Assembly (NCBI GenBank): GCA_964543815.1
Contig: CAZIZG010000001.1
Span: 116,265-180,264, forward strand
Length of the DNA: 64,000 bases
DNA from: an uncultured Bdellovibrionales bacterium
GTDB lineage: Bacteria; Patescibacteriota; Minisyncoccia; Moranbacterales; UBA1568
Direction of reading: 5' to 3'
Notes under the pieces: model-generated
Seen by the model: the letters and a program-made list of their open reading frames with translations, nothing else
What the model was told of the DNA's origin: nothing
Databases searched by the model: none
Part shown: positions 3,484 to 41,575 of the stretch, in pieces
How the letters are laid out: each line of letters starts with the position of its first letter
How positions within the stretch are numbered: position 1 is the stretch's first letter
Program-made: the position numbers and the translations under genes

Positions 3484-3856
3484 TTCCAAAACAGATCTAT
3501 AAGCCGGATTCTGTTCCGCCGAGGAGGCGGAGATTACCATTTATCTTGTCTATCCGTTACCGGATAACTCTTTGCAGTTCTCCACATCTTTCTTGAGCTC
3601 CAAGAAAAACTTGGCACGACCTTGCACCGAGGTAAGGATTTAGCCGTTTCACTCTCCGCATTACTGTGGAGACTCAACCCTTGCGGGTTGCCGAGCGTCT
3701 TTCGTACTCGGCGTCTCTGCTCGCACCTCGCGCCTCACGGCGTATGGGGGTTACCCATTACCCTTGCCACTCTTGCGAGTAGCTCGGTGTCCGGACTTTC
3801 CTCACTCCAGCCCTTTGCAGAGCCAGCCGCGCGATAATCCAATCTGTTCTGGAAAA
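3484..3856 (-). ncRNA. rnpB: RNase P RNA, bacterial type
   Basis: minus strand carries GAGGAAAGTCCGGAC (P4 5-prime half; plus-strand rc at 3789-3803) and ACAGAATCCGGCTTATAGATCTGTT (3-prime P4 half/P1, rc of about 3490-3515); P1 pairing CCAGAACAGAT/ATCTGTTTTGG; ends approximate (+/-5 nt). Confidence 0.85.
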
Positions 3857-37481: not shown

Positions 37482-37553
37482 TGGGGAGTAGCCAAGCGGT
37501 AAGGCAGGGGCCTTTGAAGCCTCCATGCGATGGTTCGATCCCATCCTCCCCAG
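37482..37553 (+). tRNA. tRNA-Gln (anticodon TTG); CCA not encoded
   Basis: TGGGGAG-TA-GCC-AAGCGGTAA-GGC-A-GGGGC-CTTTGAA-GCCTC-CATGC-GATGG-TTCGATC-CCATC-CTCCCCA-G; cloverleaf near-identical in plan to E. coli tRNA-Gln. Confidence 0.85.
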
Positions 37554-37559
37554 CAAATT

Positions 37560-38117
37560 ATGTTCACTATTCCGAAACAATACTCTTCCATCACTTTTAT
37601 TCAAGACACTTCTTGGCAGGGGGTTTTTGATACCTGGCGAGATTTAGAAGCCTGGCAAAATTCATGGAAACAACACTGGGAAGAAAGAGGATTTGACTCA
37701 TGGGATGAATGGCGAAAAGCATACATAGAACCGTATCATCCAGAGTCGCTCTCATGGGCATTGTACAAAATTACTGACCCGCTACAAGATGTACCACATT
37801 TTTACGGGACACCCACCAAGGGGTGGATCGAGAAAGTTTACAACGGGGAAACGACTCTACAACTGAAAGATCTTGTTACTCATCCAGTCATTACGAATAA
37901 TGAAAAAATTATAGACATCAAAAAAGACTTTCCTCCTGAGACAATGCTTACGGGTATCATTTTTGAGGATAAAATTGTCTTACTTGAAGGCATGCATCGA
38001 GCAAATGCTATCACTACATGGAATCCCAAAGACGCCTTTACTGGTACAATTACTATAGCTCTTGCTGAGTGGAAGCACCACTTGATAAAAATAGGCGGAA
38101 ACTACAAGTCTAAATAA
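37560..38117 (+). CDS. hypothetical protein (185 aa), first gene of the post-tRNA cassette
   Basis: start moved to MFTIPKQ so it does not overlap the tRNA; Trp/acid-rich N-terminus; no motif. Confidence 0.45.
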   Translation: MFTIPKQYSSITFIQDTSWQGVFDTWRDLEAWQNSWKQHWEERGFDSWDEWRKAYIEPYHPESLSWALYKITDPLQDVPHFYGTPTKGWIEKVYNGETTLQLKDLVTHPVITNNEKIIDIKKDFPPETMLTGIIFEDKIVLLEGMHRANAITTWNPKDAFTGTITIALAEWKHHLIKIGGNYKSK

Positions 38118-38151
38118 GTTCCAACTTCATCCCAAGCCTCAACACTATTTT

Positions 38152-38436
38152 ATGAAAGCAATGAAGGCTAGCGCGGTCATAAATCTACAGGACATCCCAA
38201 ATATTGGCCCGGCAATGATTGAGGATTTTAAAAAACTTGAAATTTACACGCCAGCCGATTTGAAAAAACAAGACGCCTTTGCGCTCTATCAAAAACTCTG
38301 TGCCCTAACTCACACTCGTCATGACCCCTGCGTCCTCGATACATTTATCGCTGCCGTTCAATTTATGAACGGCGCACCAGCTCATCCTTGGTGGCACTAC
38401 ACTGCCGAGCGCAAAAGAAACTACCCGACAATATAG
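38152..38436 (+). CDS. helix-hairpin-helix DNA-binding protein (Cdd1/TfoX-C-like)
   Basis: NLQDIPNIGPAMIEDFKKLEIYTPADLKKQDAFALYQKL. Confidence 0.55.
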   Translation: MKAMKASAVINLQDIPNIGPAMIEDFKKLEIYTPADLKKQDAFALYQKLCALTHTRHDPCVLDTFIAAVQFMNGAPAHPWWHYTAERKRNYPTI

Positions 38437-38485
38437 AAACTCCCCTTTCTTCCTCTAATCTCTTTATCCCATAACTTCAGTATCT

Positions 38486-38971
38486 ATGCTCGTCGAACTT
38501 TCAACCAATCAGATAAAATTTTCCAAAGAACTTCTCGGTGCAGAAACTGCCTGGCTCTGGGTCGGCTCTGGTTATAGTCCGCTTGATAATGACGATAACC
38601 GAGTAAAAGAAACTCGCGAACTCATGGAAAAATACTACCCTTACGTCCCCTATGGAATGTGGGTGGGAAATAAAGCTGGCAATGAAATGAAGCCACTTGA
38701 ACTCAGAGAAGAGGGATATACTCTCGATCTTTCCTGGTGGCCAGTTGGCGTTTACCGTATGAACCTTCACACTGGTGCTGGCATTGAATCACCTTTTGGT
38801 TCAAAACTGCATCCAGAAAAACGTGATCAGGAGTGCTCATGGTCACCACTTGAAACATTTCAGAATGAACTCAAGTCATTCCTTCACAAGGAAGAAAATG
38901 GCGCTGGATATTCCATTCGCTTCCTTATTCGTCCAGATCGTTCTGTGGAACCTTTTGGCGATTACAACTAA
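38486..38971 (+). CDS. hypothetical protein (161 aa)
   Basis: ORF in the operon-like cassette; no motif. Confidence 0.45.
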   Translation: MLVELSTNQIKFSKELLGAETAWLWVGSGYSPLDNDDNRVKETRELMEKYYPYVPYGMWVGNKAGNEMKPLELREEGYTLDLSWWPVGVYRMNLHTGAGIESPFGSKLHPEKRDQECSWSPLETFQNELKSFLHKEENGAGYSIRFLIRPDRSVEPFGDYN

Positions 38972-39003: not shown

Positions 39004-39879
39004 ATGGTAAATGTCTCAGTTATTACTACTCGATTACGAGATGAGATTAAGCAAAGTCATGCCCCTGTCACTGGCTATTTTATTGCCTGTGCACTCATAA
39101 CAGAGCATGCCATTTACATCGATCATAACTACGAGCACGAAGACTCATTGGTCTTTGAACATGCCGAACAAAGGGCCTTAGCCAAAGCCGTTAAAAACGA
39201 AGTATCGCCAAAAATTAAACAGGTTTTCATGTATGGGGAGGGAAAAGTGAAGAAGTTTAAGCATTATATTCCGTGTGCAGATTGCACTGATACACTCCAA
39301 CCCTACGTTGATTCAGGTACATCGATAACATTGTTGCCAACCCAAGAAACTAAGACTGAACTACATCTAGGCTTTAATGAAGTAAGGAATAGCTACACAT
39401 CGTACGAATACTCGAGTATTACAGATGCCACGAGACTTAAATACGAAACGTTGCTCAATGAAAAAGATCAGCGATTTATCTACGATCTTGTTGCGCTGGG
39501 AAAAGAAAGGGGGGCTACTTTTTTCTTAACTGGAAGCGCATCTCGACGAGGAGGATTCAGCAATCTCCTTCTTTCAAAGCTCAAGAAAACTTATGGTGAT
39601 TTAGATTTATTCTGCATGCTTTCAGATAAAGGGACGCTAAATGGTGTAATCGCATCAGTAGAGAGTCTTATTCAGACATACTATGGAGTCCTAAAAAAGG
39701 TAGTAAGACCTCTCCCCCCTTACCAGAATCGAAAAGACGTAGTCCTCACCAAGATTTACTATCACTTTGATTCTGAGACTGAGCCATTTGTTGACCTCAC
39801 ATTTAGCTTGGCATTAGATGGGTCATTTATCAGAAAAGAATACTTTGACCGAAACTGGTTTCATGAGCTAGCGTGGTAG
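39004..39879 (+). CDS. predicted zinc-dependent (CDA-fold) deaminase fused to a Pol-beta-type minimal nucleotidyltransferase
   Basis: N-terminal half: FEHAEQRAL (H-A-E) and YIPCADC (P-C-x-x-C) 36 residues apart; C-terminal half: FFLTGSASRRGGFSNLLLSKLKKTYGDLDLFCML (G[SG]...DxD). Confidence 0.5.
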   Translation: MVNVSVITTRLRDEIKQSHAPVTGYFIACALITEHAIYIDHNYEHEDSLVFEHAEQRALAKAVKNEVSPKIKQVFMYGEGKVKKFKHYIPCADCTDTLQPYVDSGTSITLLPTQETKTELHLGFNEVRNSYTSYEYSSITDATRLKYETLLNEKDQRFIYDLVALGKERGATFFLTGSASRRGGFSNLLLSKLKKTYGDLDLFCMLSDKGTLNGVIASVESLIQTYYGVLKKVVRPLPPYQNRKDVVLTKIYYHFDSETEPFVDLTFSLALDGSFIRKEYFDRNWFHELAW

Positions 39880-40227: not shown

Positions 40228-40596
40228 CTAGAGGTCATCGGGTGAGATGACCTGCGTGTGATTCAAGCAGGATCGCAAAAAGACCGTGGCGGCATCCTTT
40301 GGTTTCCTCGGGATATCAAAGACCCGTAACAGTGCTTCCCGGAGGAAGCGCGTCGCTCCTGGACTTCGTACGAACCAACGCTTCTCTGGATCCATTCCAG
40401 ACAGGACAGTGACGTTGTCATCGAACAGGCCAACGATTTTTTTCTTCGAATAGCCATTGTCCCGTGACATGGCGGCATGCTCGATGAAATCACTTCCCTC
40501 GTGACACTCCCGCACCGTTGGCAGGAAGTCTTGAGCAAAGGAACTGGTTGAAATACCAATCCACAGTATCAGTATACAGATACTCCAAACGCGCAT
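40228..40596 (-). CDS. secreted hypothetical protein (122 aa, signal peptide) in high-GC islet
   Basis: AAGGAGA upstream; N-terminus MRVWSICILILWIGISTSSFA-QD; GC-rich. Confidence 0.5.
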   Translation of the reverse strand: MRVWSICILILWIGISTSSFAQDFLPTVRECHEGSDFIEHAAMSRDNGYSKKKIVGLFDDNVTVLSGMDPEKRWFVRSPGATRFLREALLRVFDIPRKPKDAATVFLRSCLNHTQVISPDDL

Positions 40597-40701
40597 GACT
40601 GTCTCCTTGTCGGCACGAGAATTGGAGGAAGAGTCGGGTAGTTACCCTTGCCCATATCTTGTCTCGATTTTTTCCTTTTGTCAAAGAAAAATTCTAAGCT
40701 G

Positions 40702-41295
40702 ATGAGATATTTCTCTCTCAGAATGGTATACTGGATTGCAAGTAAAAGATACTCTATGACAACATACGTCGCCCTCCTCCGGGGCATCAACGTCGGAGGG
40801 AATAACAAAGTAGAGATGAAAAAACTGAGAGCCGTCTTTGAGACGCTCGGATTTTCAAACGTCACCACCTATATCAACTCCGGCAATATCATCTTTACTT
40901 CGGACAGAAAAAATACCAAGAGTCTCGTATCAGACATTGAAACCGCCATCCAGGAATCCTTCGGCTTTGCCGTGAGAGTAATCGTGCGTGATGAAAAAAA
41001 TATTCGGACGATTGAAAAAGCCATTCCGAAAGAGTGGTCAAACGACACCAAACAGCGGACGGATGTCCTCTTCCTCTGGGAGGAATATGCCAAAAAAAGC
41101 ACCCTCAAGCTCATCGTCACCAACCCTGACATAGACACTCTACTCTACACTGGAGGCGCTATTGTCTGGCACATGAGCGACCGGAAGCACTACAGCAAAA
41201 GTGGTCTGCGGAAATTTATCAGCACCGAGATTTACAAGCACATGACCGCTCGCAATGTGAATACCCTCCGCAAACTTACGACTCTTTTTCCTTAA
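40702..41295 (+). CDS. DUF1697 family protein
   Basis: MTTYVALLRGINVGGNNKVEMKKLRAVFETLGF is the family-typical N-terminus. Confidence 0.7.
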   Translation: MRYFSLRMVYWIASKRYSMTTYVALLRGINVGGNNKVEMKKLRAVFETLGFSNVTTYINSGNIIFTSDRKNTKSLVSDIETAIQESFGFAVRVIVRDEKNIRTIEKAIPKEWSNDTKQRTDVLFLWEEYAKKSTLKLIVTNPDIDTLLYTGGAIVWHMSDRKHYSKSGLRKFISTEIYKHMTARNVNTLRKLTTLFP

Positions 41296-41299
41296 ACGT

Positions 41300-41575
41300 A
41301 TGACAGAAATAAAGCGCGATTGGGATATTTTGACGGATGGAGAACGAAAACATGCCATCGATGAAATCATCGGATATTTTGCTACTGAAAGAAACGAGGA
41401 GATGGGTGTCATTGCGGCTAGCGAACTCCTCGATCTGTTTCTCCGAACTACTGGCGGCGCCGTCTACAACCACGCTCTCGATCATATCCGACCGCTCCTC
41501 GAAAAAAATCTCAACACCACTCTCCTCGATATTGATGTAACTCTCCGCAAAGAGATTATCAAGCAACTGTCCTAG
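41300..41575 (+). CDS. DUF2164 family protein
   Basis: 91 aa; IGYFATERNEEMGVIAASELLDLFL family-like. Confidence 0.5.
   Translation: MTEIKRDWDILTDGERKHAIDEIIGYFATERNEEMGVIAASELLDLFLRTTGGAVYNHALDHIRPLLEKNLNTTLLDIDVTLRKEIIKQLS

Follow-up and report, generated by a model that had tools for sequence, protein, structure and literature searches.

The dimeric cytidine deaminase (Cdd) of the E. coli type (294 amino acids, aa) consists of a catalytic domain and an inactive domain of similar cytidine deaminase (CDA)-like fold, and DcdV, a zinc (d)CTP deaminase, combines a P-loop kinase-like domain with a deaminase. Zinc-dependent CDA-fold enzymes, namely CDADC1 and the PBCV-1 enzyme, deaminate (d)CTP, the triphosphate of which they contact through Lys/Arg residues, and in the classical pathway dCTP deaminase is followed by dUTPase and then by thymidylate synthase (ThyA) (PMC12088426, PMC12184417). 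The triphosphate is contacted in this way in CDADC1, whose product dUTP needs a dUTPase (PMC12088426). A survey of deaminase-fold architectures mentions no fusion of Cdd with a nucleotidyltransferase (NTase) of the Pol-beta superfamily, and the only "nucleotidyltransferase" mentioned is a HIGH-superfamily enzyme beside archaeal JAB genes (PMC3239186). A gene for such a fusion is present at 39004-39879 on the forward strand of the window, which here means the whole stretch of 64,000 nucleotides (64 kb) analysed from contig CAZIZG010000001.1. No description of a Cdd plus Pol-beta NTase fusion was found in the full-text literature, Pfam, NCBIfam or solved structures. The protein belongs to both superfamilies and to none of their characterised families.

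A two-domain protein encoded by one gene

The open reading frame (ORF), whose initiation codon is the first ATG past a stop codon, encodes the following protein and domains:

39004..39879, forward strand: complete coding sequence of the CDA-NTase fusion protein, 291 aa plus stop (ORF list and translation)
39004..39408, forward strand: Cdd-type zinc cytidine deaminase domain, residues 1-135 (PF00383, Foldseek)
39421..39876, forward strand: minimal Pol-beta-type NTase domain, residues 140-291, of a family without a Pfam model

The initial annotation, made from the sequence alone, proposed a zinc deaminase and a Pol-beta NTase in one polypeptide. This architecture is borne out by a PF00383 match and by models in which both halves take the expected folds, and the four motifs on which it was based (FEHAEQRAL, YIPCADC, TGSASRRGG and YGDLDLF) are all located in the translation as claimed. 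The catalytic residues are kept among homologues: the H53-A54-E55, C91/C94, G177-S178 and D199/D201 motifs are invariant in eight of eight close full-length homologues. No single-function family aligns with the protein from end to end. The AlphaFold2 model of the whole protein, built from 8 sequences, reached a predicted local distance difference test score (pLDDT) of 92.9 and a predicted template modelling score of 0.86. The identical protein (P0001) recurs on contigs of NCBI, Logan and ENA, 13 in all.

The deaminase half

The first domain is a relative of the tetrameric Cdd. PF00383, the zinc-binding region of cytidine and dCMP deaminases, matched residues 15-99 with 28.5 bits, its gathering cut-off being 25. 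TIGR01354, the equivalog model of tetrameric Cdd, gave 26.1 bits and did not reach its cut-off of 113.65; the domain is therefore considered a Cdd relative rather than an orthologue. According to the model, this half adopts the three-layer alpha/beta/alpha deaminase fold. In a Foldseek search against the PDB, 60 matches were obtained at E<=1e-3, the best being B. subtilis Cdd (1ux1_A, E 6.4e-8, target-normalised template modelling (TM) score 0.77). The best 41 matches were all free-nucleoside cytidine deaminases, followed by blasticidin S deaminases. The best 50 of the 60 were all CDA-fold deaminases, with no TadA, dCMP-deaminase or APOBEC-type chain among them. Thus, of the cytidine/dCMP/TadA-type assignment made initially, the CDA-fold zinc deaminase stands and the TadA/dCMP-deaminase type does not, the class being that of free-nucleoside Cdd (the C-terminal-hairpin division).

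The residues of the active centre are as follows, with conservation counted here and below in 55 full-length family members:

39127..39135, forward strand: N42-Y-E44, counterpart of B. subtilis Cdd Asn42/Glu44 by phmmer (N in 43/55, E in 51/55)
39160..39168, forward strand: H53-A54-E55, zinc ligand and catalytic Glu, corresponding to 1ux1_A residues 53-55 (H in 43/55, E in 46/55)
39253..39285, forward strand: K84-x-K86-H-Y-I-P90-C91-A-D-C94, lysines followed by the PCxxC zinc ligands (K86 in 50/55, P90 in 52/55, C91 and C94 each in 43/55)
39394..39396, forward strand: Y131, near-invariant aromatic residue closing the deaminase domain (Y in 53/55)

Residues 10-65 align by phmmer to 1ux1_A with the same numbering at the key positions, pairing N42, E44, H53 (C53 in wild-type Cdd), A54 and E55, and placing Y25 on F24. 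In B. subtilis Cdd, Asn42 and Glu44 bind the ribose 3'-OH. With P90-C91...C94 encoded at 39271-39285, the catalytic and ribose-binding residues of this half are complete. Position 25, occupied by Tyr here, is mostly R or K across the wider family. Judging from its position in the modelled fold, Y131 probably acts as the lid at the C-terminal end, as the lid Phe does in Cdd-type enzymes.

The domain therefore shares with tetrameric Cdd (B. subtilis 1jtk/1ux1, human CDA, yeast CDD1) the fold, the zinc ligands, the catalytic Glu, N42/E44, the stacking aromatic residue at 25 and the C-terminal aromatic residue. It differs in its first zinc ligand, which is His (HAE, as in E. coli-type enzymes) rather than Cys, in five inserted residues, with conserved lysines, ahead of PCxxC, and in lacking the Arg/Gln of PCGxCRQ; moreover, a domain of about 150 residues is added where Cdd stops. 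The initial annotation had put the spacing of the H and C ligands at 36 residues and called it somewhat longer than in classic enzymes. The direction was right and the figure was not, since H53 and C91 are 38 residues apart, compared with 33 in B. subtilis Cdd, because of the small insertion that carries K84 and K86. The E. coli-type dimeric Cdd is similar in length, in HAE(Q) and in having a CDA domain followed by a second domain of comparable size; however, that second domain is a degenerate CDA fold, whereas in the fusion it is an NTase fold. No E. coli-type chain occurred among the best 50 full-length Foldseek matches, nor any CDA-fold chain among the listed structural matches of the C-terminal domain.

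The nucleotidyltransferase half

Pfam, NCBIfam, PADLOC and PHROG models gave no match to the C-terminal half, and the 291-aa protein matched neither PF01909, PF07984 nor other NTase sequence models. Its assignment comes from structure and from a small set of conserved positions:

39448..39468, forward strand: T149-x-L151-x3-D155, family-specific motif opening the first NTase helix, in the domain linker (T in 50/55, L in 53/55, D in 52/55)
39529..39555, forward strand: T176-G177-S178-A-S-R-R182-G183-G184, the hG[GS] motif extended to a glycine-rich loop (G177 and S178 each in 53/55, R182 in 41/55, G183 in 43/55)
39592..39609, forward strand: Y197-G-D199-L-D201-L, metal-binding DhDh motif (Y197 in 52/55, D199 and D201 each in 53/55; D199-D201 at 39598-39606)
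39793..39795, forward strand: D264, candidate third catalytic carboxylate in a modelled strand at residues 263-268 (D or E in 49/55)
39841..39858, forward strand: Y280-x3-N284-W285, family-specific C-terminal motif (Y in 46/55, N in 49/55, W in 37/55, F in 13/55)

When modelled alone, this half reached a pLDDT of 85, and the best 50 Foldseek matches in the PDB were all Pol-beta-superfamily NTases (E 2e-3 to 4e-2). The modelled order of elements (helix, strand, GS loop, helix, strand with DxD, helix, strands) is that of the NTase core, with the GS loop between a strand at residues 171-176 and a helix at 185-192, and with D199-L-D201-L beginning a strand at 200-206. A profile of 38 sequences was compared with PDB sequences, and its best four matches, all below threshold (E 0.1-0.2), were a CD-NTase, TENT5A, HI0073 (an MNT) and TENT5B. 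All four were aligned on Y-x-D-L-D-L: the Y197-D201 motif corresponds to YKDLDL of TENT5A/B, YSDLDL of HI0073 and PDVDI of CD-NTase, and G177-S178 pairs with the GS of CD-NTase 9sa4. Pfam searches with the relatives likewise gave sub-threshold hits, to NTP_transf_2 in 6 of 38 and to NTP_transf_7 in 2 of 38. The C-terminal half is thus a divergent minimal NTase without an accessory domain, in which the GS loop, the DxD motif and a third acidic residue are conserved.

Its closest described counterparts, MNT (HI0073; NTP_transf_2) and TENT5/FAM46 (NTP_transf_7), differ from it in several respects. All sequence matches to them remain below threshold, the GS motif is lengthened in the family to TGSASGRGG, and T-x-L-x3-D and Y-x3-N-W are specific to the family. 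In addition, the fusion has neither a HEPN partner nor the helical domain of TENT5. No HEPN family was reported among the Pfam-annotated neighbours, many neighbours being without any Pfam match.

Family distribution and members without a zinc site

A word-indexed search of 5.8 billion proteins returned 9 relatives, and an exhaustive profile search with the C-terminal domain returned 75 cluster representatives among 1.84 billion proteins. A word-indexed profile search with the alignment of 55 sequences gave at least 7 proteins and little that was new. Two of the 75 (P0025 and P0071) were rejected as false positives, being repetitive unrelated proteins. The remaining clusters are nearly all 280-340 aa long, with the NTase domain running from about residue 140 to the end; because nearly all of them carry it there, NTases of this family normally occur fused. 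Judging from these sequences, the two halves co-occur almost exclusively.

As far as seen, the family looks confined to Patescibacteria. A scan of GTDB species representatives with a small alignment found one locus, in a Ca. Moraniibacteriota metagenome-assembled genome, and the neighbourhoods of the family resemble small Patescibacteria genomes. One member (P0043) carries Trp at five conserved Gly/Ser positions (LTWWASWRWG, YWDID). This pattern is expected if UGA, read as Gly in code 25, was translated as Trp, so the protein probably comes from Gracilibacteria or Absconditabacteria; the family would thus be present in lineages of that kind as well. No relative was found in IMG/VR, INPHARED phages or PLSDB plasmids.

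The full deaminase centre is present in 43 of the 55 members. The other 12 (P0026, P0032, P0044, P0051, P0054, P0055, P0058, P0066, P0068, P0074, P0076 and P0078) have lost the zinc ligands and the catalytic Glu, usually together with N42. K86 (11/12), Y131 and the linker motif persist in them, as does the NTase centre in full, T149/L151/D155 being retained in deaminase-active and deaminase-dead members alike. Therefore, the NTase centre is the constant of the family, and deamination would be a property of about four-fifths of it. W285, Y280 and R182 are more often missing in deaminase-dead members, in a comparison that ignores phylogeny.

Two further members deviate in length. One of 229 aa (P0009) aligns through LTGSASGR and is wholly divergent thereafter; this copy is frameshifted and represents either a pseudogene or a fault of assembly. 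In another of 407 aa (P0031; locus L009, 153-1376), about 110 N-terminal residues match the C-terminal part of Exo_endo_phos (EEP), representing either a real EEP fusion or a call merged with a truncated upstream EEP gene.

Neighbourhoods across the family

The genomic context was compared in about 24 distinct loci. No single neighbour is conserved across them, and the family gene therefore has no obligate partner, immunity or antitoxin gene. Nevertheless, an NTP pyrophosphatase lies no more than two genes away in 6 of the roughly 24 loci, where about 0.6 such neighbours would be expected by chance (a rough estimate from a generous base rate of 1%). A dUTPase equivalog is encoded 8 nt upstream of the family gene at L007/L008, together with a divergent ThyA. 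NUDIX neighbours occur in four loci (L001, L006, L012 and L014); at L006 the NUDIX protein, from a winged helix-turn-helix-NUDIX gene, is translationally coupled across a 3-nt gap to the deaminase-dead P0078. A MazG pyrophosphohydrolase and a CYTH protein are encoded directly upstream of the member at L021 (2-840), and this CYTH protein scores high enough to pass the equivalog model of class IV adenylate cyclase (CyaB). Further phosphoesterase neighbours include NT5C, HAD, His_Phos_1 (twice) and the EEP fragment that P0031 carries. Farther from the family gene, these loci contain about 70 other called genes with a Pfam annotation, and no NTP-pyrophosphatase or phosphoesterase of the families named was found among them.

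tRNA genes form a second recurring element, within 300 nt of the family gene in 5 of the loci:

L002 5674-5748: tRNA gene near the family gene
L003 5782-5856 (= L005 5692-5766): tRNA gene near the family gene
L010 598-675: tRNA gene near the family gene
L018 2134-2210: tRNA gene near the family gene
L024 1118-1192: tRNA gene near the family gene

In four of these loci the tRNA genes (Asp, Gln, Glu and Gly) are upstream on the same strand, at gaps of about 35-250 nt, and in one a tRNA-Gly gene is downstream on the opposite strand. Five further loci, the 64-kb window among them, have a tRNA gene within 2.5 kb. Under our own estimate that about 4.5% of intergenic spaces hold a tRNA gene, 5 adjacencies compare with about 1.6 expected (p ~0.02). 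The association with tRNA that had been proposed for this gene may hold, as tRNA genes do abut family genes; however, the enrichment is marginal and the tRNA identities differ. The adjacency is suggestive only: the genes might be co-transcribed, the site might be a hot spot for accessory genes, or the arrangement might be due to chance.

The 72%-identical orthologue (L003) has tRNA-Gln(CUG) directly upstream. A tRNA-Gln gene thus lies upstream in both this locus and the window, with three additional ORFs in between in the window. About 1 kb downstream of the orthologue there is a type I restriction-modification (R-M) cluster encoding HsdM, a Bro-N protein and HsdS (L003 7936-12969), which the window lacks.

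Imperfect direct repeats of 28-32 nt with 75-79% identity were noticed on either side of the gene at two loci (L002 5820-5847/6893-6920 and L014 3422-3453/4956-4987), and these may be chance matches. A genomic-island reading based on a direct repeat of the tRNA 3' end beyond the downstream side of the gene was considered and set aside, given that only short imperfect two-copy repeats were found (79% for the L002 pair), which are not counted as evidence.

Possible function

The reading favoured here, with a probability of roughly 40%, is that the fusion serves Patescibacteria as an accessory enzyme of two domains, located in the cytoplasm and interconverting pyrimidine (deoxy)nucleotides, with (d)CTP deamination as the leading form. 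A pyrimidine (deoxy)nucleotide role is proposed because of the deaminase class, the acidic isoelectric point and the recurring NTP-pyrophosphatase, nucleotidase and ThyA neighbours. The whole protein has a median isoelectric point of 5.7 and the NTase half one of 6.5, and for so acidic a protein a small-molecule substrate fits better than RNA. We infer that the deaminase half turns a cytosine nucleoside or nucleotide into its uracil form and that the NTase half binds Mg-NTP. In the proposed mechanism, the NTase half would clamp the Mg-triphosphate of (d)CTP while the base is deaminated in the Cdd pocket, so that the fusion would convert (d)CTP to (d)UTP by zinc-dependent deamination. The basic residues K84, K86, R/K25 and R182, predicted to lie around the pocket, would suit a triphosphate substrate. 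The resulting (d)UTP would then be cleaved to dUMP by the neighbouring dUTPase, NUDIX, MazG or CYTH protein, and dUMP would be converted to dTMP by ThyA. In the members without a zinc site (about one-fifth), the pocket might only bind a nucleotide, with NTase activity or NTP binding carrying the function.

The zinc (d)CTP deaminases CDADC1, of vertebrates, and DcdV, which acts in bacterial defence, resemble such an enzyme in joining a zinc deaminase to a second domain that deals with phosphates. However, they belong to the dCMP-deaminase (helix-4) class rather than the Cdd class, and their partner domain is an inactive deaminase or a P-loop kinase, not a Pol-beta NTase. Several observations weigh against pyrimidine interconversion by (d)CTP deamination. 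The pocket of the free-nucleoside Cdd class normally excludes a 5'-phosphate, and carboxylates as nearly invariant as the three of the NTase half suggest that nucleotides are actually transferred and not just bound. A NUDIX gene is still coupled to deaminase-dead members, so the link to pyrophosphatases needs no deamination, and the rarity of the family implies that it does not perform a core salvage step. Finally, the whole 64-kb window contains no nucleotide-metabolism gene: phmmer found in it no homologue of dUTPase, ThyA, NUDIX, NT5C, MazG, CYTH, NrdR or His_Phos.

A closer cooperation of the halves, in one composite active site, is a possible but more tentative proposal. The NTase triad and the glycine-rich loop might hold the Mg-triphosphate while the Cdd pocket deaminates; alternatively, the NTase might add NMP to a nucleoside or nucleotide, or to a tRNA terminal cytidine, in the pocket, yielding a hitherto unknown nucleotide product for NUDIX, MazG or dUTPase to turn over. 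If true, a composite site would represent a third, structurally new solution to (d)CTP deamination and the first use of a Pol-beta NTase fold as a substrate clamp. More generally, halves cooperating on one substrate would be new to enzymology, whether the NTase serves as the clamp of a zinc (d)CTP deaminase or a nucleotidylated pyrimidine of a new kind is made, and would offer a compact scaffold possibly useful in deaminase engineering.

It is unlikely that the protein works on RNA or tRNA 3' ends, with the NTase half extending an RNA 3' end or repairing tRNA CCA and the deaminase-like pocket reading or editing the terminal cytidine. The best structural matches of the NTase half are indeed tRNA nucleotidyltransferases, and tRNA genes are found nearby. 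The resemblance to class II CCA-adding enzymes noticed in the initial annotation holds only for the catalytic head of about 110 residues, the structural match spanning about 108 residues of a 415-residue enzyme. Compared with class II CCA- and A-adding enzymes (3h37, 4wby, 1miv; PF01743), however, the fusion lacks the neck with the nucleotide-selecting EDxxR, the body and the tail, which select the nucleotide and hold the tRNA, and it has no other RNA-binding domain; PF01743 matched neither the protein nor its relatives. The acidic character of the protein, the variation of tRNA identities between loci and the marginal enrichment argue in the same direction, as does a deaminase of the nucleoside class rather than of a tRNA- or nucleic-acid-editing class.

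An equally improbable alternative is that the two activities are separate, the deaminase being an ordinary (deoxy)cytidine salvage enzyme to which an NTase is fused that senses NTP pools or nucleotidylates the protein itself, for example on a conserved Tyr. MNT AMPylates HEPN and GlnE adenylylates glutamine synthetase, which provide precedents. A nucleoside-type pocket with N42/E44 and aromatic lids would fit this scheme, as would an NTase of minimal MNT-like size, matched to HI0073 on YSDLDL, and the high conservation of Y131, Y197 and Y280; NT5C, HAD and His_Phos neighbours would supply nucleosides. On the other hand, Y197 is common to the NTase cores of TENT5 and HI0073, and the retention of the NTase centre in deaminase-dead members makes little sense for a regulator of deamination. 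Halves acting separately would make the protein a minor accessory salvage enzyme.

A role as a toxin, an anti-phage protein or an effector against other bacteria, acting on nucleic acids or nucleotides by mutation, depletion or tagging, an idea also raised in the initial annotation, appears quite remote. The rare and patchy distribution, the varied context and the frequent proximity to tRNA genes, which are typical accessory-gene hot spots, could be read in its favour, together with the slight GC dip at 37.5-40 kb and the type I R-M system with a Bro-N gene adjoining the orthologue. Deaminases that deplete nucleotides are reported to act in defence. However, no PADLOC-DB v2 family, dCTP deaminase defence included, was found at E<=1 for the protein or its three upstream neighbours, PHROG gave no match, and the phage and plasmid collections were negative. 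No conserved neighbour that could serve as an immunity or antitoxin partner occurs in the loci compared, most neighbours being housekeeping genes, and the protein, besides being acidic, has no N-terminal signal, secretion or trafficking region. Unlike in polymorphic-toxin deaminases (MafB19, DddA, SsdA-like), the deaminase is N-terminal without a leader and no immunity gene is adjacent; the MafB19 deaminase match itself had E 0.14 and 12.5 bits against a cut-off of 27. Least probable of all is the detoxification of cytosine-nucleoside antibiotics by a blasticidin-S-deaminase-like half and an ANT- or Lnu-like NTase half, given that Cdd matches clearly beat blasticidin S deaminase (E 6e-8 vs 7e-5), that antibiotic NTases score no better than others and have extra substrate-binding domains absent here, and that the neighbours concern nucleotides, not resistance.

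Whichever function applies, the domain architecture is rare and apparently undescribed, its C-terminal NTase family is without an existing model, and the fusion unites two of the most versatile folds among nucleic-acid and nucleotide enzymes. Patescibacteria are not known to synthesise nucleotides de novo and live by salvage; unrecognised enzymes of pyrimidine interconversion, the role favoured here, would therefore bear on their survival on hosts.

Surroundings of the gene in the window

The genes flanking the fusion gene include the following:

37482..37554, forward strand: tRNA-Gln(UUG) without encoded CCA, context only (ARAGORN, Rfam, sequence)
40648-41295, forward strand: DUF1697 gene, downstream (E 2.5e-43)
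41300-41575, forward strand: DUF2164 gene, downstream (E 1.4e-12)

The tRNA-Gln had been taken as a neighbour that needs post-transcriptional CCA addition. The absence of an encoded CCA is correct, the 3' end running on as ...CCCCAG CAAATT; however, the tRNA gene is not directly adjacent, lying 1.45 kb upstream with three same-strand ORFs (37530-38971) in between. The first listed of these overlaps the tRNA 3' end, and its true start is probably later. Pfam, NCBIfam, PHROGs and PADLOC contain nothing that matched the ORFs of 195 and 161 aa, and the 161-aa ORF showed no similarity to the gene beside the orthologue. The 94-aa ORF encodes a helix-hairpin-helix protein of the Cdd1/PF11731 "pathogenicity locus" family (E 4e-32). 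Together with the DUF1697 and DUF2164 genes, these neighbours are uninformative. From the tRNA through the end of the fusion gene (37.5-40 kb), the GC content is 0.41-0.44, compared with 0.46-0.50 in the flanks, which represents a slight dip. In a scan of 37.4-40.7 kb, promoter and terminator sites were no more frequent than in shuffled sequence. Downstream, a 122-aa ORF with a hydrophobic N-terminus is located on the minus strand at 40228-40596. Farther away in the window, bacterial RNase P RNA class A was identified at 3484-3850 on the minus strand, with 108.5 bits against a gathering score of 100.

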